Of a DNA stretch of 64,000 nt, positions 492 to 60,672 are shown piece after piece. Below the pieces are notes generated by a model. The model was not told the DNA's origin, did no database searches, and saw only the letters and a program-made list of their open reading frames with translations. The translations under genes and the position numbers were made by a program. How positions within the stretch are numbered: position 1 is the first letter of the stretch; each line of letters opens with the position of its first letter. Source of the DNA: Azolla caroliniana (taxonomy: Eukaryota; Plantae; Polypodiophyta); NCBI GenBank assembly GCA_043228905.1, contig JBHGNT010000021.1, positions 8,122,001-8,186,000 on the forward strand, given 5' to 3'.

Positions 492-1797
492 CTAGTGTAA
501 CTTCGAATAATGGCTTTCCGCCAACTCGTCCTCTAGGGCCGTGTCTTCGAGGTGCGTCGTCCGCACCTCCACGGGCTTCTCCGGTTCTAGCTCCATCGAG
601 AGCCGCTTCTGCTTCACCAAGTCCACGATGGAGTCATGGAATTCTTTCTTGGCGATCCCAAGCACTTCCCTCAGCGACAGCTCCACCTTGCTGTCGAGAA
701 TTCGTTCCTCAAGGTCCTTCCACAGGTCCGTTGTTCTTTCTATTTCGATGCTCAATCGATAAGCACCTTTCTTTGCTTTATCCGGTGCGCCGGAAGTACC
801 GGCGTCATTTTGCTTCGGCCCGAACTGGATCTTGTACCGTTGCGAGGGTTTGGCCCCTCCGACCTTCCCCACACGCTTATCTTCTACCAGAACCTCGTAG
901 TTCTAGCACGCAGCTTCCACGAAGCCGGTCTTTTCCTCGACCGGATCGCTCCCCCCAGTGACCTCCCGGACCCTTCTTTCCGTGCGGTCCGCTTCCTCCT
1001 TCCTATACCGCATACCGGTGAGACCTTCCAGCACCACCAGCCAGAACCCGGAGTCCTTCGTCTTTCGGCCTTCATCACTGCCAACCCGGATTCCTGTGGA
1101 CGCCGAGTAGTGGATGGTCTCCGTGTGGCACACCGCCGCTTCTTCCATCAGCCTCTTCATTCCTCCTCGTCTGATATTCAGCTCCAGGGCTCTCCGGGTC
1201 TTCCTAGCATGCACCCTCCCATTCGACAGGTACACCGCGTCACACCACAAGCACCAACGCCCACCCGGAGGCCTTCGGTCGCGAGGTTCCTCGCCACCGT
1301 TCCTCCTTGCCTGTGCAATCTGGAGGTCACCTACCATCTACGTCAGCTCCTCCAAAACTGCTCCTCTAGGCGGGCCCTTGGCCACGTTGGTCGAAGTCGA
1401 GCCTATCTCAAGCCAATCCCAGGTTTCCTCCCTTCGTGCCAGTAGGGATCCCTTGAGCTTCCTTGCCGCGACTGCTCCTGCCCTCGATGAGCCCTTGTCG
1501 ACCCACTCCCACCGTTTGTCGAAACGGCCACAGACCCCTTTTACCACGACCCAGTCGGTCGTCAGCCCATCGTCTGTCTCCAGTAGGAGACCCACTTGCT
1601 CCCGATTCCGCTCGTCCACAGCTTTGACAAATAAAAGGACACTGCTCGTGTCCAATACTATCCTTTCCAGTGCTGAAAGTCATGTTAAGCGTTCCTCAAA
1701 CTCCCAGAGGAGCACTAACGCATTCCTTCCCTTCCTGGGGGTCTCCATCAAATCCACGAAGTCCTGCTTCGTTAATCGAAGCGCTTCATCAAGCCCA
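492..1797 (-). pseudogene. Degenerate gag (3' part) of gypsy A
   Basis: Fragmented minus-strand ORFs (492-872, 903-1337, 1338-1655) with a CLWCD knuckle remnant, collinear with the protease. Confidence 0.7.
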
Positions 1798-19442: not shown

Positions 19443-19542
19443 NNNNNNNNNNNNNNNNNNNNNNNNNNNNNNNNNNNNNNNNNNNNNNNNNNNNNNNNNN
19501 NNNNNNNNNNNNNNNNNNNNNNNNNNNNNNNNNNNNNNNNNN
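19443..19542. other. Assembly gap (100 N)
   Basis: N-run; the two flanks belong to different elements. Confidence 0.99.
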
Positions 19543-20569: not shown

Positions 20570-21008
20570 CGGTGTGTGGCCCATGTGACAGAAAATGCAC
20601 TTAGGATGACCCTATGGAATTGTAATGGCGCACTCTGGGCACTACCCCGGCCGCCTAGAGGAGATACTAAAGGTATCTGATATACTTTTCTTGGTAGAAA
20701 CACATCAGAGCCCAAATAGAGGACTCCCACGGGTCGAAGGATTCCGTTGGGAGTCCGCTTTTAGACAAACCTCACGTCGACACACTACTAGGGGATCTGG
20801 AGGTGTTGCGATACTATTTCGTAGAGAGCTACATAATAGGATAGAAATAATGAAGATAGACCCAGAAGCTCGTTTTATGTGGGTGATGTCATAACTAGAC
20901 TCGAACCCATAACCTTTTGTTACACGGGTCGAGACTTTACCATTAGGTTATGAATTGTAATTTGAAGGATATTATTTTCATTTAGGTTTTATTGGGAAAT
21001 TGATGTAT

Positions 21009-21069
21009 ATTCCAGATTTCTCTAGAACATTCTAGAAACTTCAGGAGTATTCCTGAAGACACTATAAAA
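21009..21069 (+). promoter_or_regulatory. Heat-shock-element array plus TATA box in the G LTR
   Basis: Ten phased pentamers, seven perfect, including aGAAc aTTCt aGAAa cTTCa; TATAAAA at 21063. Confidence 0.7.
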
Positions 21070-21433
21070 GGAGGCGCAAGGCATTAGTTCGAACCAAATC
21101 GGTTCAACGCCAATCTTAAGCCTTCTAACTACTGTTGTATATCTTCCTTCATATAATACATATATCTTTCGCATCATCATTCTCTCTCTCTCTCTCTCTC
21201 TCTCACCCACTCACTCATTCCTTCTCTCAAAGTTCGACACCTCTCATAGTACTAATCCTTCTCTGTCTTAGTACTATTCCCCAACAATAGTACTAATCCT
21301 TCTTTTAGTACTAATTCCTTCTCTGCCTTAATAGAGTTCCTGACAGTTTGAACCGATTTTGACTACTAGTCTCCCTCTTCCTTCTGTCTCCCTCCTTTCC
21401 TACTAGTCTCTTATTTCCCTTTTCCTTCATCCC

Positions 21434-22603
21434 ATGGCCACCGTTAGCGCTGAAGAGTATCAATCCGTTTTCTCGGAATTTCAATGCTTGAAAGAGAAGT
21501 TTCATGCTTTGGAACAAGAAAATCAACGCTTGTTGGGGGATCTTCAGCAAATTTCCTTAGAAAAGCAGCAAACGCAACAACAGCATGGGGAACTTGCGTT
21601 ACGCGTGCAACAACTCGAAGCAACCATCGTAGCAATGCAACAACAAGGGCACGGAGCACAAGGGATTCATAAAGAACCCAAGATTGGCCTTCCCACGAAG
21701 TTCGATGGAACGCGATCGCAGTTTAGAGGGTTTCTTAACCAGGTACGGTTAGTTATTCAAATGCATCCGTCCCGATATCCCACCGATGCATCACGAGTGG
21801 GTTTAGTAGGCACGTTGTTAAATGGCTCAGCATTAGCATGGTTCGCTCCGCTACTAGAAAAGGAATCTCCAGTACTAAATAATTTTGAAGAATTCATAAG
21901 TGAGTTTAAAGCATGTTTTGGAGATACTGACAGCATAAGGACTGCAATCAACAAAATCCGGCGATTACGCCAAGGTGACCGTCCAGCCTCCGCATATGCT
22001 GCAGATTTCCGCCTACTCGCCGCCGATATCCCCTGGGATGATCAAGCATTGATGGAGCAGTTCCGCTATGGTCTACGCAACGATGTCAAGGATTTACTCT
22101 TGACTTTCCCTGAAGAGCCAAAATCATTAACAGAAGCAATCAGTCGAGCGGTCAGATGTGACAACCGCCTCTTCGAGCGACGTTCGGAACGACAATTTCA
22201 GATGCCGAGGGCAAGATCCGAGCCTACCTATGCCTCAGTGGTAGCGAAACCTTTTCAAAGGGAGTCACATAATGCGCCTCCAGTAAGTACTCCAACTCCA
22301 ATGGAAATTGACACTACACGTCGTCGTGGGCCGCTATCGGAGGAGGAAAAGCAACGACGCCGAACAAATCGATTATGCCTTTATTGCGGTGGACCAGGGC
22401 ATATCGCGATAAACTGTCCCCATAGACCAAGAAGGCAGGTAAACCAAGTCATTGTTAGTTCTGACTATACTAAACCCGAGTCTATTTCAGTAGGAATCTC
22501 TGATAATCCTCATAGTCATAATAGTCCTAATAGTACTAATAGTCTGAATCTCGCAAACAAATTTGATGTCCTTAGCCAATTAGAAGAAGAGTTAAACGAC
22601 TAA
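21434..22603 (+). CDS. G Gag (coiled coil, capsid, CCHC knuckle)
   Basis: PTKFDGTRSQFRGFLNQ, LRQG..YAADF, CLYCGGPGHIAINCP. Confidence 0.93.
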   Translation: MATVSAEEYQSVFSEFQCLKEKFHALEQENQRLLGDLQQISLEKQQTQQQHGELALRVQQLEATIVAMQQQGHGAQGIHKEPKIGLPTKFDGTRSQFRGFLNQVRLVIQMHPSRYPTDASRVGLVGTLLNGSALAWFAPLLEKESPVLNNFEEFISEFKACFGDTDSIRTAINKIRRLRQGDRPASAYAADFRLLAADIPWDDQALMEQFRYGLRNDVKDLLLTFPEEPKSLTEAISRAVRCDNRLFERRSERQFQMPRARSEPTYASVVAKPFQRESHNAPPVSTPTPMEIDTTRRRGPLSEEEKQRRRTNRLCLYCGGPGHIAINCPHRPRRQVNQVIVSSDYTKPESISVGISDNPHSHNSPNSTNSLNLANKFDVLSQLEEELND

Positions 22604-25600
22604 GTCCAGCCAAAATAGGAGCCGTTTGGTTGGACAGCCCTAGATCTGTGCAGCCCATTAGTGGTTCCATTCCCTCTAAGCAAGTTAGTGATGTGTTCGT
22701 AGCCCAAGTAGCAGTTAGTACTAAAAGTACCCCTCCAGTACATACCTTAGCCCTTCTAGATTCCGGAGCTAATTCTTGCTTCATGGATAGGAATTTTGCC
22801 CGAGCTCATCAGATATCTCTCAGAAAGCTCCCATGTCCAGCCTCAGTAGTAGTCATTGATGGTCGTCCCATTGCTTCTGGTAATATCATAGAAGAGTCGG
22901 AACCCGTTAATATTGTCCTAGATAACTTAACATGTGTAGTATCATTTAATATTATTAGTATTCCAGAACATCCCATAGTTTTAGGATTACCATGGTTCGA
23001 GTTACATGACCCAGACATAGATTGGAGGACAAGGGAAATCCGGTTGCGACAAACCCAAGGATCTACCCAGAAGGTTGCAACCATTTCGCTACGTCAGTTG
23101 CGTGAGGAAGGGCGCAAGGAGGAAATGTTTCTCTTTGCAATATCAGTACAACCCTCCAGCACCACCAAAGAGGAGTCCACCGTTCAACTTCCCGAGAAGT
23201 ATCGTCAGTATGCTGATGTGTTCGATAAAGTACAAGCAAACACACTTCCTCATCATCGGCCGTACGACTGCGCCATCGACTTACAACCGGGAAAAGAGCC
23301 GCCATGGGGGCCGATCTACAATTTGTCACCAACCGAGCTAGAAGTCCTTCGAGCCTATATAGAGGAGAATTTGGAGAACGGTTTCATTCGGCATTCGAAA
23401 TCTCCAGCCGGCGCACCCATTTTCTTCGTCAAGAAAAAAGATGGCTCGCTTCGACTCGTTGTAGATTACCGTGGCTTGAATAAGGTCACAGTAAGAAATA
23501 GGTATGCTCTTCCCCTTATCTCAAGTCTTTTAGAACGGATCAACGGTGCCAGGTTCTTCACGAAGATCGACTTACGAGGAGCCTATAACCTCGTACGGAT
23601 CCGACCAGGAGATGAATGGAAGACCGCGTTTCGCACCAGATATGGGCACTTCGAGTATACGGTCATGCCGTTCGGACTCACTAATGCGCCGGCAGTCTTC
23701 CAGCACATGGCGAATGATATATTTCGAGATCTCTTGGATGATTTTTTGATCATCTATTTGGATGATCTACTGGTTTATTCAAAGACCCAAGAAGAACATG
23801 ATTCTCATGTACTATTAGTACTAAAACGACTTCGAGAACATGGTCTGTATGCAAAGTTAGAGAAATGTAGTTTCGGGTGCGCAACCAAGTGGAGTTTCTC
23901 GGCTATGTCATCTCCTCAGAAGGAATATCTATGGACCCAGCCAAGGTCAAAACGGTGATAGAATGGCACACTCCGCGTTCGGTGCGGGATGTGCAATGCT
24001 TCCTAGGCTTTGCAAATTTCTACCGGAAGTTCATACAAAATTACTCAAAAATTGTGCTGCCTCTCACACAGCTCACCAGGAAGGGACAATCATTCATTTG
24101 GTCTAAAGAGACGGACATGGCTTTCGAGAGTCTTAAGAAGGCGTTTACATCAGCTCCAATTTTAGGTCATGTGGATCCGGAAAAACCATTCATTATCGAA
24201 GCTGACGCATCGGATTTCGCATTGGGGAGCATTCTGTCACAACAGGGTAATGACGAGAAGCTACATCCTGTGGCTTTCCACTCCCGTAAGTTTGACGCCG
24301 CCGAAATCAACTACGAAATTCATGATAAAGAGCTATTAGCAATAGTTGATTCTTTTATGCAATGGAGGCATTTCCTGGAGGGATCTCCTCATCAGGTCAC
24401 TGTATTCAGTGACCACAAGAACCTTGCCTACTTTCAAGATGCTCGTGTACTGAATCGACGTCAAGCTCGGTGGGCCCACTTCCTCACACGCTTCGACTTC
24501 AAAATTACATATCGTCCGGGGAAGCACCAAGGGAAGGCGGATGCATTATCACGGCGTTCGTATCTAACACCACGTCCCGGTGAGCCAGCTTTCGATAACC
24601 AGAAGCAAGTAATCTTGGGACCAGCACGACTGCAAGCAGCACAGGTCTTTGACATGCCCGTGGATTCCGACATTACCAATACTATACGTGAGGACTTGAA
24701 GACTGACGCTTTCGCCCAAGCTATACTAGCACAAATTGACCCCTCTCGAGCGTCATGTTCACAATCACAATCACCAGGTACGGATTATCGGCAATTCAAA
24801 TACTGTGATGGATTACTCTTCTTTAAAGAACTTTTGTATGTTCCTAATGGTTCTTGCCGCCTTCGAGTAGTACAAAACTGCCATGACACATATACAGCAG
24901 GACATTTTGGTAGTACTAAAACATTAGATTTAGTACAACGATCATTCTGGTGGCCCCGTATGCGACAATTTGTCGAAGATTTTGTTCGGACTTGCGATAC
25001 ATGCTGCAGAGCGAAAATGCCAAGACATCATCCATATGGTTTATTAGAACCATTACCAATTCCAAGCAAGCCATGGCAATCCATTGCTCTTGACTTCATT
25101 ACAGATCTTCCAGTCTCTAAGGGATTCAGTGCGATTCTCACAGTGGTGGATCGATATACGAAGATGGCTCATTTCTTACCATGTACTAAAGAAATATCTA
25201 GTGAAGACACCGCCGAAATTGTCATGCGGGAAGTATGTCGGCATCATGGACTCCCTGATAATATCATCAGCGATCGTGGACCCCAGTTTGTGTCAAAATT
25301 CTGGAAGCACCTTTTTAAAATGCTGAAGGTCACTTGTAACCTCTCCTCCGGCTACCACCCACAAACCGACGGTCAAGCCGAACGAACAAATCAAACACTG
25401 GAGCAGTATCTGCGGTGCTTTCTCAACTATCATCAGAATGACTGGGCAGATATTCTTCAGTTCGCCGAATTTGCCTATAATAACGCTATCCACGCATCGA
25501 CTAAAGTCACGCCATTCTACGCTTATACGGGATATCATCCCCGGTGGTGTGTCCTTGAAACCCCAGAAGTGTCCACAAATCCTTGCGCGGAGGATCGTTT

Positions 25601-26189
25601 GGAGCGGTTACGCAAGATACAAGGGGATTTATCTACTCAACTCCAGCAAGCTCAACAATCACACAAGGACTACGCAGATCGTCATCGACTTCCATCCAGT
25701 TTTAACATTGGAGATCGGGTGTGGCTGCTGCGACGACACATCAAGACTACTCGCCCATGTGAGAAGTTGGATTATCGGCGATTAGGTCCTTTCCGTATTA
25801 TCGGGAAGATTAATGATGTCGCTTTTCGTCTCGAGCTACCTCCGCAACTTCGGATACACCCGGTGTTTCATAGTTCTCTCCTCGAACCCTATCACGAGAG
25901 CACTATCCCAGGACGTACTATACAACCTCCACCTCCTATCGAGCTCGAAGATGGACCTGAGTATGAGGTCGCTGCCATCCTCGATTCCAAGATTGTTCGC
26001 AACAAGCTCTACTATCTAGTCGATTGGCTAGGATATAGTCCCAGCGAGCGTACTTGGGAACCGATCGAGAATGTGACCAATGCTCGTGCTCTTCTAGAAG
26101 ACTTCCATCGACGATATCCCGAGAAACCGGGTCCTCAATCCAAAACGACTCGTGAAACTCGTCGTTTTAAAGGGGGGATAGTGTCATAA
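22591..26189 (+). CDS. G Pol (PR-RT-RH-IN-chromodomain) in the -1 frame; one frameshift near 23878
   Basis: LLDSGANSCF, YLDDLL, EADASDFALG, HHCC/DDE integrase, GPF motif, EYEVAAIL..YLVDWLGYSPSERTWEP chromodomain. Confidence 0.92.
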
Positions 26190-26645
26190 CTAGACTCGAA
26201 CCCATAACCTTTTGTTACACGGGTCGAGACTTTACCATTAGGTTATGAATTGTAATTTGAAGGATATTATTTTCATTTAGGTTTTATTGGGAAATTGATG
26301 TATATTCCAGATTTCTCTAGAACATTCTAGAAACTTCAGGAGTATTCCTGAAGACACTATAAAAGGAGGCGCAAGGCATTAGTTCGAACCAAATCGGTTC
26401 AACGCCAGTCTTAAGCCTTCTAACTACTGTTGTATATCTTCCTTCATATAATACATATATCTTTCGCATCATCATTCTCTCTCTCTCTCTCTCTCTCTCA
26501 CCCACTCACTCATTCCTTCTCTCAAAGTTCGACACCTCTCATAGTACTAATCCTTCTCTGTCTTAGTACTATTCCCCAACAATAGTACTAATCCTTCTTT
26601 TAGTACTAATTCCTTCTCTGCCTTAATAGAGTTCCTGACAGGTGA

Positions 26646-29978: not shown

Positions 29979-30435
29979 TGTCAAGACTGAGAGAGAGAAA
30001 GAGAGAGAAAAAGAGATAGAGAGATAATTGAAAGAGAATTATTATATTGAAGCGTAAAATGGATTACAAAGAGTAGGCTACAAAATGGCGTTGAACCAAT
30101 TTAGGTTTGGGATGGGTGGTAGATCCCTATTTATAAGTAATAGAGAACTCTCTAGAATATTCTAGGTTATCCTAGAATGTAGAGTAATCTAGAAGATCTC
30201 TAGAGTATTCTAGAAGGTTCTAGTGGTATAGAACACTCTAGAATATTCTAGGTCATTCTAGAATGTAGAGTAATATAGAATATTCATATGATATTAGATT
30301 TCATATTCTAGAGACTATAAGAATATTAATACAATGGTTAAGGATTTGACATGTGTACAACAAGGTCGTGGGTTCAAATCCTTTCGAGTCATAATGTGAG
30401 TGTCATGATCCTTTCGATGCATGATGTGACTGTTA

Positions 30436-33400
30436 TCATGACACTATCCCCCTTCTTCGACGACACGTCTCACAGGTCGTAGGGTTTGTATTAGGACCTG
30501 GTTTACAAGGATATTGGCGATGAAATGCATTGACGAGTTCTGCAGCATTGGAAAGATTTGTGGCAGGTTCCCAAGTTCGATCATTGGGGGTATAGCCTAG
30601 CCAATCGACCAAGTAATACAACTTGTTGCGCACGATTTTAGAATCGAGAACGGCAGCAACTTCAAATTCAGGCCCATCCAAGAACTCGACAGGTGGTGGG
30701 GGTGTCGTAAGACGGCCCGGAATTGAACTTGTAGTATAAGGTTCCAAAAGGGATACATGACACACCGGATGAAGATGCATGTGCGGAGGGAGGTCAAGAC
30801 GAAATGCAACATCACTTATCTTACCAGTGATCATGTAAGGGCCAAAACGTTGGTAATCCAATTTACTGCAAGGTCGAGTGGTCTTGATGTTGTGTTGGAG
30901 AAGCCATACATGATCCCCAATGCGGAACTTTTTTGAGGAGTCTAGACGATGACGATCGGCAAGCCTCTTGTGTGTAAATTGAGCATCGTGCAAATTGTGG
31001 AGAATGTTAGCTTGAATTTCTTGGAGGCGACTAAGACGATCCTCGGCAGCAGGGTTGGTAGGAACTTCTGGATGCGCATTCATCGTCCATCGAGGATGAC
31101 AGCCCGTATTTGCGAAAAATGGGGAATATCCTGTAGAAGAATGGGTTGAGTTGTTGTAAGCGAATTCCGCCAAGTGCAAAAATGCAACCCAATCATCTTG
31201 TTGATAGTTGATGAAACAACGAAGATATTGTTCCAATGTCTGGTTGGTACGCTCTGTTTGGCCATTTGTTTCAGGATGATAGCCCGAAGAAAGCTTAACT
31301 GAAATGTGGAGAAGTTTGAACAGGTGCTTCCAAAACTTTGAGATGAATTGTGGACCACGATCACTAATAATATCATCTGGCAGACCATGATGCTTAAATA
31401 CCTCCCGCATAACGAGATCAGTCGTCTCTTGACTAGTAATCGACTTTGTACATGGCAAGAAATGTGCCATTTTGGTAAATCGATCAACCACTGTGAGAAT
31501 TGCATCAAAACCTTTTGAAACTGGGAGATCAGTAATGAAGTCCAAGGATATAGACTTCCAAGGTGTTTCTGGAATGGGAAGTGGTTGTAGTAAGCCATAG
31601 GGTCGGTGATGAGGATTCTTTGATCGACAACATATATCACAACTCCGAACATACTCCTCAACAAAATGACGAAGGTGAGGCCACCAATAGCATCGAGAAA
31701 TTAATTCTAGAGTCTTGTGCACTCCAAAATGACCAGCCATTGGTGAGTCATGGCAATGTTGCAAAACTTGTAGCCGTGGGGGACCATCAGGAACATACAA
31801 TAAATTTTGTCGAAATAGAAAACCATCATGCCAATAAAACTGACAATAGTCATTACGAGGATTTTTCGACTGTGAGCAAGAAGCACGATCCGGGACGATA
31901 TGATCCAAAACATCCTTGGCGAAATCATCAGTGGCCATATGATCTCGAATGGAATCAAGAAGAGTGGAATTTTCAAGAGTTGTTATGGCGTTAACTACCA
32001 TTAATCGTAATCGATTAGGACCCAAAAGGATTTGTTTTTGATGCTCAAAAGCAGGTTCCCCTGGACGAAGTTCCATATAAGAGCGCCGAGAAAGAGCATC
32101 TGCTTTGCCTTGCTGCATCCCAGGGCGATATATGATGATAAAGTCGAAGTGAGTCAAAAATTGCGCCCACCGGGCTTGTCGCCGACTCAAGACTCGAGCA
32201 TTTTGGAAATAAGTCAGGTTCTTATGATCATTGTAGACAATGATCTGCTGAGAAGAACCTTCTAGGAAATGTCGCCATTGTTGAAACGAATCCACGATTG
32301 CAAGAAGCTCTTTGTCATGGATCTCGTAGTTGATCTCTGCAGCTTCAAACTTTCGTGAATGAAAGGCGACAGGGTGTAGTTGTCCATCATCTCCAGTCTG
32401 CGAGAGGACACTCCCTAGTGCAAAATCGGATGCATCGGCTTCGAGGATGAAGCGTTTTGTTGGGTCAACATGTGCTAAGATAGGTGCCGTTGTAAATGCT
32501 CGTTTTAAGCTTTCGAATGCCTCGGATGCATCTGAACTCCATATAAATGGTTGATCTTTATGTGTGAGCTGAGTAAGCGGAAGCACAACCTTGGAATAAT
32601 CTTTAATAAATTTTCGATAAAAATTTGCAAACCCGAGAAAACATTGCACATCACGCACTGAAAGGGGCATTTGCCACTCTAAAATTGCCTGTACCTTCAT
32701 GGGGTCCATAGCAATACCATTTGACGATACAACATACCCCAAAAATTCCACTTGATTCTGGCCGAAACTACACTTTTCTAATTTTGCGTAGAGACCATAT
32801 TCTCGGAGTCGGCACAGTACTTGACGAACATGTGCATCATGCTCCTCTTGGGTCTTTGAGTAGATTAAAATATCATCTAGGTAAACTATAGTGAAGATAT
32901 CAAGAAAATCTCGAAAAATATCGTTCGCCATATGTTGGAAAACAGCAGGTGCATTCGTGAGACCAAATGGCATCACTGTATACTCAAAATGTCCATAGCG
33001 AGTGCGGAAAGCTGTCTTCCATTCATCCCCCGGGCGAATCCAAACTAGATTATATGCTCCGCGAAGGTCCAACTTCGTGAAATATTTTGCACCACTGAGA
33101 CGTTCCAAAAGATTCGGGATTAATGGTAGAGCATATCTATTTCGGATAGTCACTTTGTTTAGCCCTCGATAATCCACGACCAACCGAAGAGTCCCATTCT
33201 TCTTCTTAACGAAGAAGATAGGTGCACCAGCAGGGGATCTAGAATGCCGAATGAATCCGTTTGCCAGATTCTCATCAATATATTCCCGCAAAGTCTCTAG
33301 CTCTACAGGGGAGAGATTATAAATTGGGCCCCATGGAGGTTCTTTCCCTGGTTGTAAGTCAATAGGGCAGTCGTATGGCCGATGCTCCGGCAATGTATTG

Positions 33401-34086
33401 GCCTTCACCTTATCAAAGACATCTGAAAACTCCTTGTATTTCTCTGGTAGTTTAATATCCACGTCACGTGAAGTGGATGATGGAGTTGCTACTATTGCGA
33501 AGACGAACATGGCCTCGTTCCCCCCTTCCTCCCGCAACTGTCGTAAAGAGATGGGCGATAACTCCGGGGATCTATTAGCACATGTAGGAGAGAGGGATGC
33601 GGGATTTGTGCTTTTTTCCCGAGTCTCCTCAATTGTTCTTTTCATCCAATCAATCTTCGGGTTATGGAGTTCAAACCAGGGGAGACCTAGAACTATTGGG
33701 TGGTCCGGACTGCGAATAATATTGAAAGAGATTATGCTTGCCAAATTGCCAAGAACTATCCTAATTGGCTCGGACTCCTCGACTATATCTCCTGATGCTA
33801 TGGGACGTCCATCGATGACTCCTACGGCTACGGGGTTGGGAAGCTTATTCAAGAGGATGTTTTGTGACAAGGCAAATTCACGATCCATGAAACAAGAGTT
33901 GGCTCCAGAATCTAGAAGGGCAGAGGCTAGGACTCGATGACATGTAGATGTGGTAAGCTCGACTTGTGCTGAAAAAACTCGACTCACTTGATTTGATGAA
34001 ATGGAACCACGACTAGGAACTAACTCTACATAGCTAGGATGGTCCAGCCAAATGGCTCCTATTTTGGCCGGACTTACTCGTTTAAC
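30436..34086 (-). CDS. H Pol (PR-RT-RH-IN-chromodomain)
   Basis: 1183-aa ORF in the track, open upstream to the slippery site; LLDSGANSCF, YLDDIL, chromodomain. Confidence 0.95.
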   Translation of the reverse strand, partial: VKRVSPAKIGAIWLDHPSYVELVPSRGSISSNQVSRVFSAQVELTTSTCHRVLASALLDSGANSCFMDREFALSQNILLNKLPNPVAVGVIDGRPIASGDIVEESEPIRIVLGNLASIISFNIIRSPDHPIVLGLPWFELHNPKIDWMKRTIEETREKSTNPASLSPTCANRSPELSPISLRQLREEGGNEAMFVFAIVATPSSTSRDVDIKLPEKYKEFSDVFDKVKANTLPEHRPYDCPIDLQPGKEPPWGPIYNLSPVELETLREYIDENLANGFIRHSRSPAGAPIFFVKKKNGTLRLVVDYRGLNKVTIRNRYALPLIPNLLERLSGAKYFTKLDLRGAYNLVWIRPGDEWKTAFRTRYGHFEYTVMPFGLTNAPAVFQHMANDIFRDFLDIFTIVYLDDILIYSKTQEEHDAHVRQVLCRLREYGLYAKLEKCSFGQNQVEFLGYVVSSNGIAMDPMKVQAILEWQMPLSVRDVQCFLGFANFYRKFIKDYSKVVLPLTQLTHKDQPFIWSSDASEAFESLKRAFTTAPILAHVDPTKRFILEADASDFALGSVLSQTGDDGQLHPVAFHSRKFEAAEINYEIHDKELLAIVDSFQQWRHFLEGSSQQIIVYNDHKNLTYFQNARVLSRRQARWAQFLTHFDFIIIYRPGMQQGKADALSRRSYMELRPGEPAFEHQKQILLGPNRLRLMVVNAITTLENSTLLDSIRDHMATDDFAKDVLDHIVPDRASCSQSKNPRNDYCQFYWHDGFLFRQNLLYVPDGPPRLQVLQHCHDSPMAGHFGVHKTLELISRCYWWPHLRHFVEEYVRSCDICCRSKNPHHRPYGLLQPLPIPETPWKSISLDFITDLPVSKGFDAILTVVDRFTKMAHFLPCTKSITSQETTDLVMREVFKHHGLPDDIISDRGPQFISKFWKHLFKLLHISVKLSSGYHPETNGQTERTNQTLEQYLRCFINYQQDDWVAFLHLAEFAYNNSTHSSTGYSPFFANTGCHPRWTMNAHPEVPTNPAAEDRLSRLQEIQANILHNLHDAQFTHKRLADRHRLDSSKKFRIGDHVWLLQHNIKTTRPCSKLDYQRFGPYMITGKISDVAFRLDLPPHMHLHPVCHVSLLEPYTTSSIPGRLTTPPPPVEFLDGPEFEVAAVLDSKIVRNKLYYLVDWLGYTPNDRTWEPATNLSNAAELVNAFHRQYPCKPGPNTNPTTCETCRRRRGIVS

Positions 34087-35198
34087 ACATCCTCTAATTG
34101 ACTCAAGACATCGAATCTATTCTCATGACATGGACTATGAGGCTTATTTATGTTATTAGAAGTAACAATAGAACTCGATGTAGGGTTTTCATGGGCACTT
34201 ACTTGGTATACTTGACGCCTAGGTTTATGTGGACAATTTACAGCTATATGTCCTGGACCACCACAATACAGGCAGAGGCGATGCGCTCGACGTCGTTGCT
34301 TCTCAGCATCTGATAACGGCCCACGACGTTGTGTTGACTCTATTTCCATCGGAGTTGGGCCATCCCTTGTAATGGGTCTAGAAACTTGTGGAGGCGTTGC
34401 GACTACGGAAGCGTAAGTCTGTTCAGGTTGGCGGCGTAACATTTGTTGGCGCTCAGAACGTCGCTCAAATAGGCGATTATCACATCGCACAGCTCGACTA
34501 ATGGCTTCTGTAAGTGACTTCGGATCTTCAGGGAAAGTAAGAAGAAGATCTTTGACATCATTTCTCAAACCTTGACGGAATTGATCCATTAAAGCTGCCT
34601 CATCCCAAGGGATATCGCATGCCAAGAGACGGAAATCGGCTGCATAAGACGACGCGGGACGATCTCCTTGTCGGAGCCTTCGAATCTTGTTTATCGCTGT
34701 CCTAGTGTTGTCGGTGTCTCCGAAACTAGCTTGAAACTCTTTAACAAAGGCCTCGAAATCCTCCAACAATGGTGATTTCTTCTCGAGAAGTGGTGCGAAC
34801 CATGCTAACGCCGTACCGCATAGCAAAGTTCCCACTAATCCCACACGAGCAGCATCGGTTGGATACCGATTGGGATGTAGCTGAATAACTAAACGAACTT
34901 GATTCAAAAAGCCTCGAAATAAAGACCTCATACCATCAAACTTGGCAGGGAGGCTGATCTTTGGCTCTCTAGGGGAGTTCTGAGCCCCCGACGCTTGCTC
35001 TCGTAATGACAATATAGTCGCCTCAAGTTGATGAACCCGCTGTGATAACTCTTCATATTGTTGAGCTTTTTCGGCGCTCACGTGTTGTAGATCTCCAAGT
35101 AGCCTTTGATTCTCATGCTCTAATGCCACAAATTTATTCATGAGCATGTCGAGCTCAGAAAGAACACGCGTGTATTCTTGTTTGCTCACGGACTCCAT
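34074..35198 (-). CDS. H Gag
   Basis: 374 aa, homologous to G Gag, CLYCGGPGHIAVNCP. Confidence 0.95.
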   Translation of the reverse strand: MESVSKQEYTRVLSELDMLMNKFVALEHENQRLLGDLQHVSAEKAQQYEELSQRVHQLEATILSLREQASGAQNSPREPKISLPAKFDGMRSLFRGFLNQVRLVIQLHPNRYPTDAARVGLVGTLLCGTALAWFAPLLEKKSPLLEDFEAFVKEFQASFGDTDNTRTAINKIRRLRQGDRPASSYAADFRLLACDIPWDEAALMDQFRQGLRNDVKDLLLTFPEDPKSLTEAISRAVRCDNRLFERRSERQQMLRRQPEQTYASVVATPPQVSRPITRDGPTPMEIESTQRRGPLSDAEKQRRRAHRLCLYCGGPGHIAVNCPHKPRRQVYQVSAHENPTSSSIVTSNNINKPHSPCHENRFDVLSQLEDVLNE

Positions 35199-36051
35199 AG
35201 CTTATGAGGGGAGAGGAGAAGGAAGAAGAGAACTTGTTAGGGTTTGTGGAAGACGAAGAGATGAAAGGGGAAAAATTGGTTCAAACTGTCAAGACTGAGA
35301 GAGAGAAAGAGAGAGAAAAAGAGATAGAGAGATAATTGAAAGAGAATTATTATATTGAAGCGTAAAATGGATTACAAAGAGTAGGCTACAAAATGGCGTT
35401 GAACCAATTTAGGTTTGGGATGGGTGGTAGATCCCTATTTATAAGTAATAGAGAACTCTCTAGAATATTCTAGGTTATCCTAGAATGTAGAGTAATCTAG
35501 AAGATCTCTAGAGTATTCTAGAAGGTTCTAGTGGTATAGAACACTCTAGAATATTCTAGGTCATTCTAGAATGTAGAGTAATATAGAATATTCATATGAT
35601 ATTAGATTTCATATTCTAGAGACTATAAGAATATTAATACAATGGTTAAGGATTTGACATGTGTACAACAAGGTCGTGGGTTCAAATCCTTTCGAGTCAT
35701 AATGTGAGTGTCATGATCCTTTCGATGCATGATGTGACTGTTATCATGACACCTAGAAGCCATGGCTAGGGCACTCTCTACATTGGAACCCACATCAAGA
35801 CCCTTTGACCCCCCACTTCTTTTCGAGAGGCTTGGGTGGAAATAAAATTAGGCTTAGTGTATAGTCACTTTCGAGTATACTACATATTGTACACTACTAG
35901 AACTCTTTTAGTTTAAGTTCTATTTTTTTTACTTAATTTTATTTTTAGTTATTTTTAGTTATGATGACTGGATAAATACTCTATTGTTGTAAACCAATTG
36001 TCTCATGGGCCAAATTTGGCCTTAGAAGACGTTAATACATCTTTCTTTCTT

Positions 36052-48226: not shown

Positions 48227-50730
48227 AGTATTATCTATCGACACATTGCCTTTCAACAATCATATTATTTTCAACCATCAAGATTTGGAAAGAGATTTGT
48301 AGAGACATTGGGGCAAATTTGTTAACTCAACATCAATCTTAGCACTCAAGATTTGAACCCACAAGCTTTAGATGACAACAATATCACCTTTTGTACTTTA
48401 AAAGTGCAAGACATTTAATTGGAAGAGCATGTGCATATATAAACACTTGTAATTTTCTTGATCAGAATTCACATGGGGATGTCTAGGATCTCTTATATGA
48501 TGACAAAGGTGAGGCTTCCTAGTGTGCTTTTATTTAGCATGTAGTGATCATCTTGTTACACTTTAAATGACATGGTGGATTCATATCTTATACTTATCTT
48601 ACATATTCTTCGTAGACTCTATTGATTCAATTCTTGTTCTTATATCCTAAACAAATTAGAACAACTACTAGATGATTAGTTAATTGAAATAATTAATGCT
48701 AACTTTACTAATGTTGTTGAAGAGCATAGTGATGTAAACATAATTCTGGTCATATCCTAGTCATCATCTCTTGAAAGTATGTCTCATATGTTTCCTATTG
48801 CATGGACAAGGTGCCTCTACCTTCTCCATCTCAGATTAAGCTTTTTGGAGGTGATGCCTACCAAAAGGTTATGAAAGTCCCAACATTCTTGTCTCATCCC
48901 TAATTGTCTTCCTAAGTGATGCACATTACATGAGAATTGATAGTGGTTCAAAATGAACTGAAGGAAAACAAAATTGCAACTTAATGTCTTACCCAAGTTG
49001 GCTTAGTGTAAAGCATCAATGGTGATTCTGTGTAGTGGAATAGGTTAGAGATGTGTGTTGTGTGTGTGTGTGTTTGAGAAGAGGAGAAGAGAGAGACAAG
49101 ATAGATAGTATAGAAAATAGAATACTCAAGAAGATGTATATTACAAAGGAGATTAACCGAAACATTACAAAGTAGGAGGAGGGTGCTTTATATAGTCACC
49201 CTCTCTCTTCATTATCTACCGAAGCTCATCGGTCATGGGGAATGTGGAAACTCATTAGTTATGTGTCATAGATATGATTCTATGACACAGTTAATGTTAC
49301 AAAAGTAGTGGTAAAATTTAACTTTTGAGTGTTCATACACTCTCAAGGTGTGTTCACACACTAGACTAGGTTGAACTTGATTCTCAACACGCCCCCTCAA
49401 GCTCAACTTGGATCGGCTTCTTTCGATTGATGTTCGCTTCAGCTAGTACCCAGTTTGTGTGCGGAATAGTGCTCAGCCACAACCGAGTCTTAAACACTCT
49501 ATGGAAGAAACAAAACAGAAATGAAGATTAATGCACTTTCACAAAATGAGACGACACCAGATGTTAACATGAAAAACCCTAATCAGGAAAAACCACGGGA
49601 GCCCACAGACTCCAACTATCATTATGAGAGGAAGGGTATAATTAGAGACTTAGAGACAACAACCTCGAGTTCTATTTTCGCCTACCAACGGTTACAACAG
49701 AAAGCTTTCTGTATCTCTTTGTCCCTCCCTGTCTCTCTCTGTACAACAAGAATAACTACACTATTGAACATTGTTGCCCTAGTTATATTTATACTTATAT
49801 AACTTTAGGGCTATTTATAGATATGACCTGAAACAGTCACATGGGAACATATACATAAACTAATGTCTAACTGCATACCAAAACCGGATCCATCCAATCC
49901 AGTTTCCGGATATCTTCTGGATCCATCTGGTCTGGTTCTTTCCTTCAACTCGTCCAATCCAGCTTGTCAGATTCTCATCTAGATCCCATCCAGAGGGACC
50001 AAATTCCCAACAAACTCCCCTTCACTCCAGCATGGGATGTCTTGTCAATCCGATCCGTTTCCTGCACACGTTCAACTTCTCTGCGGACAACACCTTGGTC
50101 AGCATGTCCGACCCGTTCTCCTCTCTGTGGATCTTCGTCAGCGAAAACTCTTTATCTTCTACTTTCTCCCGGAGCCAGTGGTACCTTCTCTAGATATGCT
50201 TGGTTCAAGAATGGTAGGCCATATTCTTCGCGAGGTGGATGTCACTTTGATTGTCCCAGTAGAGCCGGAATTCCTCCTGTCGGATTCCTAGCTCTCCAAT
50301 GAAGTCCGTCATCCAGATTACCTCTTTGCCGGCTTCCACGACTGCCATATACTCCGCTTCCGTTATGGATAGTGCAACAGACTTCTGCAGCCTCGATTGC
50401 CACGATACGACTCACCCTGCATAGGTCATGATGTATCCAGAAGTGGAACGACTGGTATCCACATCACCCGACATATCAGAATCCGTGAAGCCTTCCAATT
50501 AGGATTTACTAGAGCCGAATCGGAGGCACATGCTCGAGGTGCCTTTCAAGTATGACAATATCCACTTGAAGACAACCCAATGCTCCTTTCCCGGATTGCT
50601 CATAAACTACTTCTTTGTCTGGTCCCGGATTATGTGCATCCCTAGGATTTGTCTCGCCGGACCCATATCTTTCATTGAGAAGGATCGGATGAGGGCCTTT
50701 TTTAGCATTCCGATTTTGATACGGTCTCGT

Positions 50731-54944: not shown

Positions 54945-57900
54945 TGTCAGGAATAGTACTAAAGCAGAGATGGAATTAGTACTAAGAAGAGCAGTACTAT
55001 TAGTTCTAAGAGGACAGGACTGCGTAAGATTCCCGAGAGAGGAGAAGTGAGAAGAGGAGAGAGAGAGAAAGATGATGACAACAGCTAATATATTATGTGA
55101 AAAAGATAAGTACAAGCGGCTAAGAGGCTTAAGACTAGTGTTGAACCAATTTGGTTCAACATAATGCCTAGTGCCTTCTTTTATAGTGTTGTCAGGAGTA
55201 ATCCTGAAACTTCTAGAATGTTCCAGAGAAATCTGGAATATACATTACTTTCTTATAATAAAACATAAATGAAAATAATATCCTATGAATTACAATAGAT
55301 GGTGTGATGGTTAAGAGCTCGACCCATATACCATAAGGTCATGGGTTCGAGTCTTGCCATATCATGACACTATCTCCCCCTTAGATGACGAGTGGAACGA
55401 GTCGGCGCTGATTGCGGACCGGGTTTGTCCAGATACTTTCGGTGGAAATCAGCAAGTAGATCCTGAGCATTGGCAACATGCTCGACGGGTTCCCAAGTGC
55501 GTTCGCTCGGACTATAACCAAGCCAATCGACTAAATAATAAAGTTTGTTGTGAATAAGTTTGGAATCGAGGATGGCAGCAACTTCATACTCCGGGCCGGC
55601 GTCCAACTCCAGTGGGGGCGGCGGTGGTGTGACACGATCGGGAATGGTGTTTGCTTTTTATAAGGTTCAAGAAGAGAACAATGGAAAACCGGATGTATCT
55701 AAAGCTACGGAGGGAGATCAAGGCGGAACGTGACATGATTAGCCTTACCCGTAATACGGAAAGGACCGAGTCGTCGATAATCCAACTTGTTGCGCGGTCG
55801 AGTAGTCTTGATGTGACGACGTAAGAGCCATACTCGATCTCCGATGGCAAAAGAGGAGGGAAGCCGATGACGATCCGCGTAGGTCTTCTGTGTCTGTTGA
55901 GCATGACGAAGATGAGTCGAGAGATCTGTCTGGATCTTGCGTAGTCTCTCCAAATGATCCCCGACACGAGGATTGGTAGGTAGCTCCGGGGTGTCGATCA
56001 CCGACCAGCGAGGATGAGAACCGGTATAAGCGTAGAATGGGGAGACTCGAGTCGAGGAGTGAACAACATTATTATACGCAAACTCCGCAAAGTGGAGAAT
56101 CTCGGCCCAATCGTCCTGTTGATAACTCAGGCAACACTGGAGATATTGCTCCAGCGTTTGGTCTGTTCGTTCTGCCTACCCATCGGTCTGAGGATGTTAG
56201 CCGGAGGAGAGGTTGCAAGAGACCTTGAGCAACTTGAAGAGATGCTGCCAAAATTTGGAGACAAATTGCGGTCCTCGGTCACTGATGATACTGTCTGGGA
56301 GGCCATGATGCCGAAATACCTCACGCATGACTAGGGCGGCGGTTTCCTCGCTAGTGATGGCCTTAGTACACGGAACAAAATGTGCCATCTTCGTATATCG
56401 ATCGACGACGGTTAAGATAGCATCGAACCCCTGCGAGACCGGCAGACTGTGATAAAATCAAGACAAATAGACTGCCACGGCTTACTTGGAATCGGTAAGG
56501 GTTCCAACAAGCCATATGGATGGTGTCGTGGCATCTTTGCTCGGCAGCAAGCATCACAGGTCCGAACGTAGTCGTCGACAAAACGGCGCATGTGGGGCCA
56601 CCAAAAAGATCCCTGCACTAACTCCAATGTCTTAGTACTACCGAAATGTCCCGCCGTATGGGTGTCGTGACAATGTTGGACGATTTGAAGGCGACAGGAG
56701 CAATCGGGGACATATACGCGCTTTTTAAAGAATAACAAACCATCATGATATTCGAATTGTCGGTAGTCAATACCTGGTTGTTGAGACTGAGAACAGGATG
56801 CCCGAGAAGTATCAATGTGCGCCAGGATGTCTTGAGCAAAACTATCCGTCTTCAAGTTTGCACGTATGTCATCGGTAATCCGTGAATCCATCGGGGTGTG
56901 AAAAATCCGCGTCGTGTGCAATCGTGTTGGTCCCAAGATTACTTGCTTTTGATTATCAAATGTTGGATCACTAGGATGAGGTGCAAGATATGAACGTCGT
57001 GATAGTGCATCTGCTTTTCCTTGCTGCTTCCCAGGTCGATATGTGATTTTGAAGTCGAAACACGTGAGGAATTGCGCCCACCGAGCTTGCCGTCGATTTA
57101 GTACGCGAGCGTTCTGGAAATAAGCAAGATTTTTATGATCACTAAAGACAATGACCTGATGTGGAGAGCCCTCTAAGAAATGCCGCCATTGCACAAATGA
57201 ATCCATGATGGCTAATAACTCCTTGTCATGTATTTCATAGTTGATTTCCGCGACATCGAATTTGCTGGAGTGGAAAGCCACCGGATGCAACTCTTCTTTA
57301 TCTCCTTGTTGAGAAAGGATGCTACCGAGGGCGAAATCTGAAGCGTCGGCCTCCATGATGAATGGTTTGCTGGTATCCACATGAGCTAGAATCGGTGTTG
57401 ATGTAAAGGCTTTCTTAAGATGTCGAAAAGCCATATCTGCTTCAATAGACCAAAGAAATGCTTGGCCCTTCTTCGTAAGTTGTGTGAGGGGTAAAATAAT
57501 CTTCGAGTAATCCTGTATAAACTTACGGTAGAAGTTAGCAAAACCTAGAAAACATTGTACATCTCGTACTGACCGTGGAATTTGCCATTCTAGTACAGTT
57601 TGGACTTTAGCTGGATCCATGGCGATGCCCTTTGAGGAGATGACGTAGCCTAGAAATTCCACTTCCTTGCAGTCAAAGCTACATTTTTCTAGCTTGGCAT
57701 AAAGACCATTCTCGCGGAGTCACTTTAGTACTAATAGTACATGAGAATCGTGCTCTTGCTGGGTCTTCGAATAAAACAATAGATCATCCAGATAGATGAT
57801 CAAACAGATATCCAAGAGGTCTCTGAATATATCATTTGCCATGTGTTGGAAGACTGCGGGTGCATTGGTTTGGCCGAACGGCATAACAGTATACTCGAAA

Positions 57901-60672
57901 TACCCATACCGCGTGCGAAAGGCGGTCTTCCATTCATCTCCCGGTCGGATCCGCACGAGGTTATACGCTCCTCGCAGATCAATTTTGGTAAAAAGCTTGG
58001 CACCATTAACTCGCTCTAAAAGACTTGATATAAGAGGAAGTGCATACCTATTCCGGATGGTGACCTTATTCAATCCGCGGTAATCAATGACGAGACGAAG
58101 TGAGCCATCTTTCTTCTTGACAAAGAAGATGGGTGCACCGGCCGGAGATTTCGAATGACGGATGAACCCGCTTGCCAAGTTCTCCTCTATGTAGGCTCGA
58201 AGGACTTCTAACTCAGTGGGTGACAAGTTGTAAATTGGTCCCCATGGTGGCTTGGTTCCTGGTTGTAAATCGACGGGACAGTCATAGGGACGGTGATGAG
58301 GAAGGGTACCGGCTTTTACCTTGTCAAATACATCGGCATAAGGATGATATTTTGCCGGAAGTTGTACTGAGGAGTCCTTCTTAATAGTGATGGAAGGATG
58401 TACTGATATTGCAAATAGGAACATTGCCTCCTTGTGTCCTTCTTCGCGTAATTGATGGAGTGAAATGGTCGAAACTCGGTGAGTAGATTCTTGGGGTGGT
58501 CGATATCGGACTTCTCTTGTTCTCCAATCTATGGCTAGATTATGTAATTCAAACCAAGGTAATCCTAGGACAATGGGATGCTCTGGACTACTAATTATAT
58601 TAAATGATATTACACACACAAAACTACCTAGGACAACTTGAATGGGTTCTGATTCTTCTACAATATTCCCGGAAGCAATGGGACGACCATCAATGACTAC
58701 TACAGCGTAAAAACTGGGTTTTCAATGCCTCGAACGTGGCGAAGCTGCCTGGTAAGTGCTTGTCGTGCCACCGGGCCGCCGGTCCTTCTAATGTCATGCC
58801 GAATTCGGCGACTTTGGATCGGTCGGCCTCGGGCTCCGTCAGTCTCTGGGACACGTGGTTGGCTTCCCATGTTCGCAGGAATGCATACACATGTGCCTCT
58901 CCGTCGGGCTCATCCCGATACTTTGGGTACGGATACGGCATCGTGTCGTCCCACTGATTCTCCTGCGCTGGTTCCTCCGATGTCGGTCTCCGCTCCTGCG
59001 GTTCCTCCGCAGGTGGTGTTGGTATCCGCTCCTCCCTCCTCGGCGATTGCCGGTCACCGAACTCCAGAGTTATTTCCTCCTCTGGCTCCGATGTTGCTGA
59101 GCGATCCGACTCAAAGGGGTTGTTCTCGTGGCTGCTTTTATAGCGGGATCCCACGCTTTCCCCGCTATCCGAATCCGCCTCTAATGTTGCAAATGCCGTT
59201 GCGTCCCCGTCGCCGCCAGCGAGAGTCTGTAGTAGTGTCTCCGCTTCTTGGAGGCTGGTTATGCTACTGCCTTCGTCGGAAGCTTGTAGAACCTGGAACT
59301 GCAGTGCGTCTTCTGCGATTTGCCGAAGCGTTTTTGAGAATGACCGATCGCGCCGGATCTCGTCGACGGCTTGCTGCAGGGCTTCCCGTCGTCGCTGCCG
59401 TTCGGCGTGGCGTCTCCCTCTTTCGGTGATGTGGTCGTTATTTTGTCTAGACATCCATCCCCCGGTTGTCCTCTGCACTCTGCAGGAATCGTGGTCGCCA
59501 AAATAGTGTTGTATGTATGGCTGGACTAGCCGCAACACAGGTGTCTATCCGACACTTCTCCAAAGGGGTGGTAGGGATAGGATGTTAATACACGCGTATG
59601 ATAATTACACTTAAGCACAGACGAAGACAAGATTAATCAGCATAAGCAAAACTATATTAATTCTTCGCCCCTTCATTACAAAACATCGGATCCTTTTATA
59701 GGCATCCGGCCAGATTACAATCGGTGCTCGGTAAGCAACCGTTAACCGAAACCAAATCGGTTCGGATCCGGATCGGTTACAACTACCGGATCCGTCCCTC
59801 CTAATAATTCTATACCTATTTCTATATTTATCCGATCCGACCTTGCTTTCCCATTTGCCTTCTCTGACCGGCCAACAATTAAGGAATCCCCGGAATTGCG
59901 ATCGCGTTCCATCAAATTTCACAGGAAGTCCAAGCTTGGGCTCTTTATGAAATCCTTGGGGACTTGATCCTTGTTGTTGCAATGCTGCTTCAAGTTGTTG
60001 TACCCGTAACGCTAACTCCCCATGTTGTTGTTGCGTTTGTTGTTTTTCGAGAGCGATTTGTTGCAAATCCCCTATCAACCGTTGGTTTTCTTGTTCCAGG
60101 GCAACAAACTTTTCTTTTAGGCACTGTAACTCGGAGAAAACGGATTGATATTCTTGGGTGCTAACAATAGCCATAGTAGAGGGAAAAGGGTAGGAGGATG
60201 AGGGAGAACGACAAGTAGGCTGGAGGAAAGAAGAAATTGGTTCAAACTGTCAGGAATAGTACTAAAGCAGAGATGGAATTAGTACTAAGAAGAGCAGTAC
60301 TATTAGTACTAAGAGGACGGGACTGCGTAAGATTCCCGAGAGAGAGGAAGTGAGAAGAGGAGAGAGAGAGAAAGATGATGGCAACAGCTAATATATTATG
60401 TGAAAAAGATAAGTACAAGCGGCTAAGAGGCTTAAGACTAGTGTTGAACCAATTTGGTTCAACATAATGCCTAGTGCCTTCTTTTATAGTGTTGTCAGGA
60501 GTAATCCTGAAACTTCTAGAATGTTCCAGAGAAATCTGGAATATACATTACTTTCTTATAATAAAACATAAATGAAAATAATATCCTATGAATTACAATA
60601 GATGGTGTGATGGTTAAGAGCTCGACCCATATACCATAAGGTCATTGGTTCGAGTCTTGCCATATCATGACA
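54945..60672 (-). mobile_element. Tcn1-like chromovirus I (degenerate, internally deleted)
   Basis: 425-bp LTRs 54945-55369 and 60248-60672 (~6 mismatches), TSD GTGCT/GTGTT, gag start at 60174, fragmented pol 55363-58702 with chromodomain. Confidence 0.93.
58703..59877 (-). mobile_element. Truncated gypsy J (5' LTR 59507-59877, PBS TGGCGACCAC, gag N-terminus) inserted in the gag of I
   Basis: TG..CA LTR, tRNA-Arg-like PBS, gag-like FGMTLEGPAARW..TFEALKTQFL, joined directly to the protease of I. Confidence 0.78.

Follow-up and report, generated by a model that had tools for sequence, protein, structure and literature searches.

A 64,000-nt window of Azolla caroliniana DNA (assembly GCA_043228905.1, contig JBHGNT010000021.1, positions 8,122,001 to 8,186,000 of the forward strand; coordinates below are those of this window) contains three full-length Ty3/gypsy chromoviruses of Tcn1-like kind, here called G, H and I, whose long terminal repeats (LTRs) carry the A and B boxes of a tRNA-type (type 2) RNA polymerase III (Pol III) promoter at the outer end of U3, antisense to the element. 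Comparison with related elements indicates that this box module is maintained by selection and is not a relic. Its selected function is probably the binding of transcription factor TFIIIC. The module and its parts, numbered by tRNA position, are located as follows.

55300-55310 (+), A box of the I 3′ LTR (tRNA positions 8-19), antisense to the element
55336-55340 (+), AGGTC of the I 3′ LTR (tRNA positions 44-48), a conserved stretch 5′ of the B box
55344-55353 (+), B box of the I 3′ LTR (tRNA positions 52-61)
60603-60656 (+), module of the I 5′ LTR, with a single change, G51 to T, beside the B box
30327-30380 (+), module of the H 3′ LTR, with hairpin arms at 30340-30349 and 30374-30383
35635-35688 (+), module of the H 5′ LTR
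20898-20950 (-), module of the G 5′ LTR
26193-26245 (-), module of the G 3′ LTR

The initial annotation had proposed such boxes at the outer U3 end of all three LTR pairs, and they were found in six of six LTRs. The box strings that it quoted lie where it had placed them (I from T8 at 55300 to C61 at 55353, plus strand; H at 30327-30380, plus strand; G at 20950-20898, minus strand), the orientation is antisense in both LTRs of each element, and the A-to-B start spacing is tRNA-like at 44 (I), 44 (H) and 43 nt (G). The distance from G18 to G52 in the modules is 34-35 nt, versus 35 nt in two real tRNA genes on L092, one of the related loci introduced below. The B box consensus is GGTTCRANYC, from which G, H and I show no mismatch; the A box is imperfect, G10 being missing in G and H and A14 in I. 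The module reads outward, away from the element and divergent from its RNA polymerase II (Pol II) promoter, with 63 nt between B box and LTR end in H, 16 in I and 11 in G. A weight matrix was built from 17 LTR units other than those of G/I, H and L027; it scored the six LTRs at 41-47 bits, against 12.0 bits for the next site in the window and 6.5 bits for the best of six dinucleotide shuffles. The box module is not a chance match. It was also correctly noted that the H LTR can barely be aligned to the others: no H-G or H-I LTR alignment reaches 120 nt, while the G and I LTRs align at 76-79%. Elsewhere in the window, 48350-48405 (-) holds a lone B-box-like site with a partial match to 44-47 and without an A box (12 bits).

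Relatives were fetched by their integrase-chromodomain protein, so that the sample is independent of the motif. At least 602 pattern matches were obtained, of which at least 535 were confirmed, and the best 80 were taken, corresponding to 78 loci (L numbers). Together with G, H and I these gave 81 sequences. Four loci with no call of the polypurine tract (PPT; L017, L044, L046, L090) and four with less than 80 nt of U3 (L016, L057, L058, L086) were dropped before counting, leaving 73 sequences with at least 80 nt of U3, which form 32 units at 75% identity. The tree contains clade A (support 99/99), with G, H and I among its members, and clade B (96/97), while three further branches lie outside both on a fork that is left open; L069, too short for the tree set, was assigned to clade B by its self-primer. 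Clades A and B comprise 27 units and five units lie outside both. The B consensus alone served as anchor, and the B-box conservation figures therefore lean on it; those for positions 44-47 and the A box do not.

A B box with at most one mismatch is present in 21 of the 27 units of clades A and B (300 shuffles: mean 0.69, maximum 3). AGGT at tRNA positions 44-47 occurs in 20 of 27 (mean 0.11, maximum 1), and an A-box TGG with G18 placed 32-37 nt before G52 in 16 of 27 (mean 2.2, maximum 8). The five outside units contain one B box, no AGGT and no TGG. Between the clades, which share 56% amino-acid identity, same-position identity over 14 x 13 pairs is 0.26 at four-fold degenerate sites, 0.28 in the spacer at 26-43 and 0.31 in the upstream U3, compared with 0.78 at 44-47 and 0.80 at the fixed B positions. 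Because neutral sites are saturated between the clades while the boxes are kept, these values argue for selection and not for a neutral relic. Among 17 disjoint sister pairs, the spacer mismatches at 86/306 = 0.28, equal to the four-fold rate of 0.28, and positions 44-47 at 5/68 = 0.07 (Fisher p = 1.4e-4). Whether the B box is more conserved than the neighbouring U3 had been set beforehand as the test of the proposal, and across families it clearly is.

The bases kept are T8, R9, Y11, A14, TGG at 16-19, A21, AGGT-Y at 44-48 and the B box, while G10, the anticodon arm and the T-stem partners vary. Within the A box, T8 is retained in 12/15, R9 in 16/16, Y11 in 15/16, A14 in 14/16 and G10 in 2/16. 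In 17 units the A-B spacing stays at 33-35, although the boxes lie anywhere from 11 to 65 nt from the LTR end, and every Tcn1-like copy located in its own 3′ LTR has the boxes antisense. A+T makes up 79% of the 60 nt upstream of the A box (15 units). Contig variants of four public runs (at least 4%) fall at 17 places in 55286-55333 and at none in 55334-55372; this was not counted as evidence, as the variant-free stretch includes the non-box terminus, contigs drop rare variants and depth cannot rank the parts.

In yeast, tau-B of TFIIIC reads the B box and contacts positions 44-47, and mutations at +44 to +47 change both binding and transcription; the A box adds little TFIIIC affinity and matters for the placement of TFIIIB, and the commonest A-B linker is 32 bp (PMC11724288). 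Mutation of C56 lowers TFIIIC affinity 370-fold (PMC11811891), and C56 is retained in 24 of the 27 units. Since this footprint includes the B box together with 44-47, the conserved outline fits TFIIIC, which leads us to regard TFIIIC binding as the probable object of selection. The boxes point away from the element and thus cannot make its genomic RNA; as they cannot act as the element promoter, TFIIIC, if bound, must serve another role.

The setting of the module bears on what that role may be. The window is a nest of retroelements, and the three chromoviruses, each of about 5.7 kb, have LTRs of 425-465 bp with TGTCA...TGACA ends, target-site duplications (TSDs) of 5 bp, and a PPT and TATA box each.

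54945-60672 (-), element I; 425-bp LTRs at 60248-60672 and 54945-55369, 98.6% alike
29979-35751 (-), element H; identical 465-bp LTRs at 35287-35751 and 29979-30443; TSD CCTAG
20887-26640 (+), element G; 459-bp LTRs at 20887-21345 and 26182-26640, with one difference; TSD GGTGA
55370-55385 (-), PPT of I; counterparts in H at 30444-30459 (-) and in G at 26166-26181 (+)
60483-60488 (-), putative Pol II TATA box of the I 5′ LTR, assigned by position, 115 bp inward of the A box
55180-55185, 35438-35443 and 21063-21068 (+), further TATA copies in the I 3′ LTR, H and G, respectively
60443-60453 (-), predicted self-primer of I at the transcript start, complementary to the primer-binding site (PBS) at 60236-60247 on the inner side of the 5′ LTR
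21098-21108 and 35398-35408, predicted self-primers of G (PBS 21346-21357) and H

Element H encodes gag (34074-35201) and a pol (30436-34116) of protease, reverse transcriptase, RNase H, integrase and chromodomain. In G the gag and pol domains are spread over three frames; in I, which has the TSD GTGCT/GTGTT and sits inside a Copia element, pol is split over several. Pfam matches place G and H in the Ty3/gypsy domain order with a C-terminal chromodomain, and the chromodomain of I was found by tblastn. All three keep the aromatic cage (Y/F, W, Y) of group I chromodomains, and their best PDB matches are HP1-family domains (E = 1e-9). Few of the best 120 protein matches are named; the named sources are a streptophyte alga, a frog, fishes and a basidiomycete. 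An IMG/VR search returned distant relatives only. G and H adjoin LINE coding sequence, and a 100-N assembly gap lies within a Copia element at 19443-19542.

In G, H and I the TATA box lies about 35 nt before the self-primer and 113-192 bp inward of the A box. The PBS of each is a 12-nt complement of its own LTR, about 35 nt past the TATA box, and there is no tRNA PBS. Self-primer and PBS change together across families (L024, L028, L029, L034, L049, L061, L062, L068, L069, L073, L076, L084), which supports self-priming in the lineage. A second, partial PBS copy just upstream of the primer would form a hairpin around the likely start site. That the box module is a further copy of the self-priming site can be excluded, since seven loci of clade B (L049, L061, L062, L069, L073, L076, L084) have a changed self-primer and PBS and keep a B box with at most one mismatch.

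The module sits between the host flank and the TATA box, which is where a barrier would sit. Fission-yeast tRNA genes (tDNAs) act as barriers that need TFIIIC and Pol III and are orientation-independent (PMC2040200), and read-through by Pol II is likewise halted at bound Pol III complexes (PMC4228148). Steering of integration to H3K9-methylated chromatin has been proposed for group I chromodomains; the moss element RLG1 has most of its copies in heterochromatic islands and is transcribed all the same (PMC3350952, PMC7466625). We thus propose that host TFIIIC is likely bound to the DNA at the outer U3 edge of both LTRs, and that the module likely positions TFIIIB as well. The bound module would be a portable barrier, keeping flanking heterochromatin off the Pol II promoter that lies inward of it, in an element that its HP1-like chromodomain likely directs to chromatin methylated at H3K9. 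Its origin was likely an old tRNA gene or the head of a short interspersed nuclear element (SINE) caught in U3, from where reverse transcription would have carried it into both LTRs. If TFIIIC does bind, the chances slightly favour anti-silencing or insulation of the 5′ LTR as the benefit. Taken without that premise, a barrier or anti-silencing element for the elements' own Pol II promoter has a little under an even chance of being what the module is. The wider proposal, put forward tentatively, is that chromoviruses of non-seed plants which seek out heterochromatin bring a tDNA-type insulator of their own, by which a newly inserted copy, with TFIIIC at its outer LTR edge, stays expressed in silent chromatin.

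Several observations weigh against this reading. No module is present in the L038 family (24 loci), L050, L075, L074, L089 or L041; none of the five units outside the two clades, the L038 family being among them, has it. L041 lost it within clade B, and it is degraded in L020, L045, L063 and L084. Families such as L038 show that the module is not required for the success of an element. The A box lacks G10 in 14 of 16 cases and is absent or shifted in 10 of 27 units; L062, L064, L073 and L076 keep the B box and most of 44-47 but have the TGG 6-11 nt farther upstream, with a weak score. The plant CAA start motif is not conserved (2/15). In the tree the joining of clades A and B is an open fork, compatible with one old gain or with two; the units are related, so that counts overstate independent events and p values are optimistic; and repeat contigs may be collapsed or chimeric. 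The precedent for barriers comes from yeasts and animals, and a review of plant barriers names, in its accessible text, no plant tDNA barrier (PMC9540200). Finally, pairing with tRNA loops would keep the same universal tRNA bases.

A functional tRNA can be ruled out at the module, where ARAGORN finds none in 60 loci and there is no Rfam tRNA match; ARAGORN likewise reports no tRNA gene anywhere in the 64-kb window. Pairing in the four cloverleaf stems stays at the level of permutation across 16 units, whereas it is complete in the two control tRNAs of L092. Those genes, a tRNA-Asn(GTT) at 552-627 (+) and a tRNA-Thr(AGT) at 831-906 (-), lie about 135 bp from a 5′-truncated Tcn1-like fragment. 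As for a putative parent, mean identity over positions 26-43 is 5.6/18 to tRNA-Asn and 4.3/18 to tRNA-Thr, the two tRNAs compared. No conserved terminator was found: a run of four T residues (T4) lies inside the LTR in 7 of 20 units, none of them G, H or I, and on reading onward the first T4 is 47 to more than 500 nt away, or lacking within 600 nt. In six clade A loci (L023, L025, L028, L029, L032, L068) a T4 run stands 11-19 nt past C61, the position of a tRNA terminator, and families with such a run could make a discrete, tRNA-sized Pol III RNA.

The initial annotation had also described a hairpin with compensatory change. The hairpin exists in G, H and I, yet it does not belong to the module in general. 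Fold z-scores (antisense/sense) are -5.0/-7.1 for I, -3.5/-2.9 for G and -1.9/-3.6 for H, and exchanged pairs stand opposite positions 57, 59 and 62 in the three elements, with C-G versus T-A at 57 and 59.

55313-55355, inverted repeat of I; arms at about 55313-55327 and 55341-55355, the segment after the A box pairing with the B box

A z-score of -2 or below on either strand is seen in only 3 of 20 units. Clade A favours one register, with 56% Watson-Crick cells versus 17-38% in other registers and 66 of 117 cells versus 57.5 when permuted (p = 0.007, inflated by kinship); clade B has no register and shows 21% Watson-Crick cells in that of clade A. In an 18-row alignment of 16 modules and two tRNA genes, 60% of cells pair, a value reached in 27 of 500 shuffles and equalled by a one-column slide. 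The hairpin is a secondary feature limited to part of clade A.

If TFIIIC does bind, the selected product could instead be a Pol III transcript, either a short antisense U3 RNA or a read-through of the PPT that regulates the element, in a self-limiting way or through interference with the divergent Pol II promoter. The A box at tRNA spacing in 16-17 of 27 units speaks for this, as do the six clade A units with T4 at the terminator position and a clade A hairpin that could stabilise a transcript. It is nevertheless unlikely: 13 of 20 units, including G, H and I, have no T4 in the LTR, and no RNA structure is conserved across clades. The initial annotation had offered a Pol III promoter or a TFIIIC insulator. 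That reading is supported in part: the kept bases fit TFIIIC recognition, whereas a defined RNA against the PPT finds no support, the LTRs of G, H and I having no terminator and the read-on over the PPT varying from 47 to about 300 nt. TFIIIC near the U3 end might also serve integration or nuclear positioning, with the cDNA or the inserted copy tethered to TFIIIC/condensin sites, or offer a landing pad to Pol III-targeting elements. The B box does lie 6-65 nt from the integrase attachment end, and TFIIIC organises the genome at extra TFIIIC (ETC) sites (PMC11724288), but the six window LTRs are uninterrupted, their neighbours are LINE (G, H) and Copia (I) sequence in a window without a tRNA gene, and a landing pad has no obvious benefit for its carrier to explain purifying selection. 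We consider these roles very unlikely.

The same bases could be kept for RNA pairing, the sense RNA of the element binding the T and D arms of a host tRNA and so aiding packaging, dimerisation or strand transfer. Here the positional precedent is exact, since the U3 of Ty3 pairs with the T and D arms of its primer tRNA (PMC5371799), and tRNA T-loop and D-loop sequence has its complement in the sense strand. On the other hand, the elements have a self-priming site and no tRNA PBS, positions 49-51, which would face the T stem, take 11 forms in 20 units, and at 45-47 a change that G-U pairing would tolerate is found in 1 of 63 cells versus four transversions; a looped-out spacer would, moreover, need no fixed length. 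This makes tRNA-arm pairing quite unlikely. Selection on the hairpin itself, in RNA or in single-stranded DNA near the PPT during reverse transcription, would account for the strong folds of G, I, L030, H, L027 and L028 and for the pairing excess in the clade A register. With so few units folding and no register in clade B, and with AGGT unexplained because it lies in the loop, we hold it to be highly improbable. Hardest to credit is that the module is a passenger, left over from a dead SINE or a tRNA. Several copies are indeed degraded or lost, but the boxes have escaped the saturation of neutral sites between clades and positions 44-47 change at a quarter of the neutral rate in sister pairs; the random-level spacer identity also argues against recent LTR exchange between clades as the source of the likeness.

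Other arrangements were seen among the relatives. The U3 of the L038 family has tandem repeats of about 37 nt in place of the module. L008, a distant chromovirus contig with 32% amino-acid identity to H, carries two A/B modules in sense in its U3 (4830-4890 and 5000-5055), in an LTR that starts near 4726 after the PPT; one IMG/VR search gave no further copies of this type. The L008 modules suggest an independent capture, and tRNA-type modules may thus have been captured more than once. On the minus strand of L040, near 12876, a lone A/B module with a T run right after C61 lies outside the element and is possibly a SINE head or tRNA relic.

The closest known likeness is Helenus (TRIMp3, a class of TRIMs, miniature retrotransposons with terminal repeats, that also takes in Cassandra and Ajax), in which A and B boxes of tRNA origin are conserved in both LTRs although a functional tRNA is lacking (Kojima 2024, PMC10886601); one Helenus family comes from a lycophyte. 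Helenus elements differ in being non-autonomous, 311-1263 bp long and tRNA-primed, with boxes proposed to transcribe the element, and in Helenus-1_SMo the boxes are in sense (PMC10886601). In contrast, G, H and I are 5.7-kb gag-pol elements with their own TATA box and self-priming, and their boxes are antisense at the outer U3 end; of the TRIMp3 features, they share boxes in both LTRs and lack both the non-autonomous form of less than about 1.3 kb and the sense boxes. The same author states that 'not a few LTRs' in Repbase contain part of a tRNA, those analysed being below 1 kb (PMC10886601). Cassandra TRIMs likewise keep a small-RNA-gene promoter in plant LTRs over long times, but it is a type 1 (5S) promoter in a non-autonomous element and drives the element's own RNA (PMC10886601, PMC12786077); a 2025 review presents Cassandra as the exception to Pol II transcription and, in its accessible text, leaves TFIIIC unmentioned (PMC12786077). 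The known LTR elements with small-RNA promoters thus appear to be Helenus and Cassandra, both non-autonomous.

Yeast tDNA and ETC/TFIIIC barriers share the DNA footprint and the proposed action (PMC2040200, PMC4228148, PMC11724288); they differ as host loci of tested function from the present module, which is mobile, element-encoded, non-decoding and of putative function. Members of the Tcn1 clade (Tf1/Sushi group) such as SM-Tcn1 and RLG1 resemble G, H and I in their length of about 5.7 kb, in LTRs of some 440 bp and 5-bp TSDs, in a group I chromodomain and in predicted self-priming; mosses and club-mosses are where this self-priming pattern of the Tcn1 clade has been reported (PMC6317226). 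Of the features that mark the clade, G, H and I show the domain order with a C-terminal chromodomain, the group I chromodomain with its cage and the self-priming site. Descriptions of the clade give TATA and CAAT boxes in the LTR and, in the accessible text, no Pol III boxes (PMC6317226, PMC2864245, PMC3350952, PMC7466625). The bipartite PBS of Ty3 also places complementarity to tRNA T and D arms in U3 beside the PPT (PMC5371799), but Ty3 is tRNA-primed and pairs with one tRNA, whereas G, H and I prime themselves and have kept, at the spacing of a tRNA gene, only the positions universal to such genes. The open full-text literature, including the accessible parts of PMC2864245, PMC13578239, PMC9540200, PMC12786077 and bioRxiv 10.1101/827881, yielded no account of Pol III boxes, selected and antisense ones included, in the LTRs of autonomous plant elements, Tcn1-like or other; such boxes could be mentioned in subscription papers, in Repbase reports or in the supplementary files of PMC6317226 and PMC2864245, which lay outside its reach.

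These findings extend the capture of small-RNA promoters from parasitic TRIMs to autonomous LTR elements. How an element that is likely aimed at heterochromatin is transcribed is an open problem, for which the module is a specific, mutable candidate of 60 bp, with L041 and the L038 family as natural knock-outs for comparison. If bound, LTRs of such abundance would supply the genome with many TFIIIC sites and could influence where chromatin boundaries fall. If the module is indeed an insulator, one element would pair a targeting module, the chromodomain, with an anti-silencing module, and would seed very many mobile TFIIIC sites in the host genome. It would then possibly be, as far as our literature search showed, the first tDNA-type barrier in a plant, a claim that we make with some reserve.

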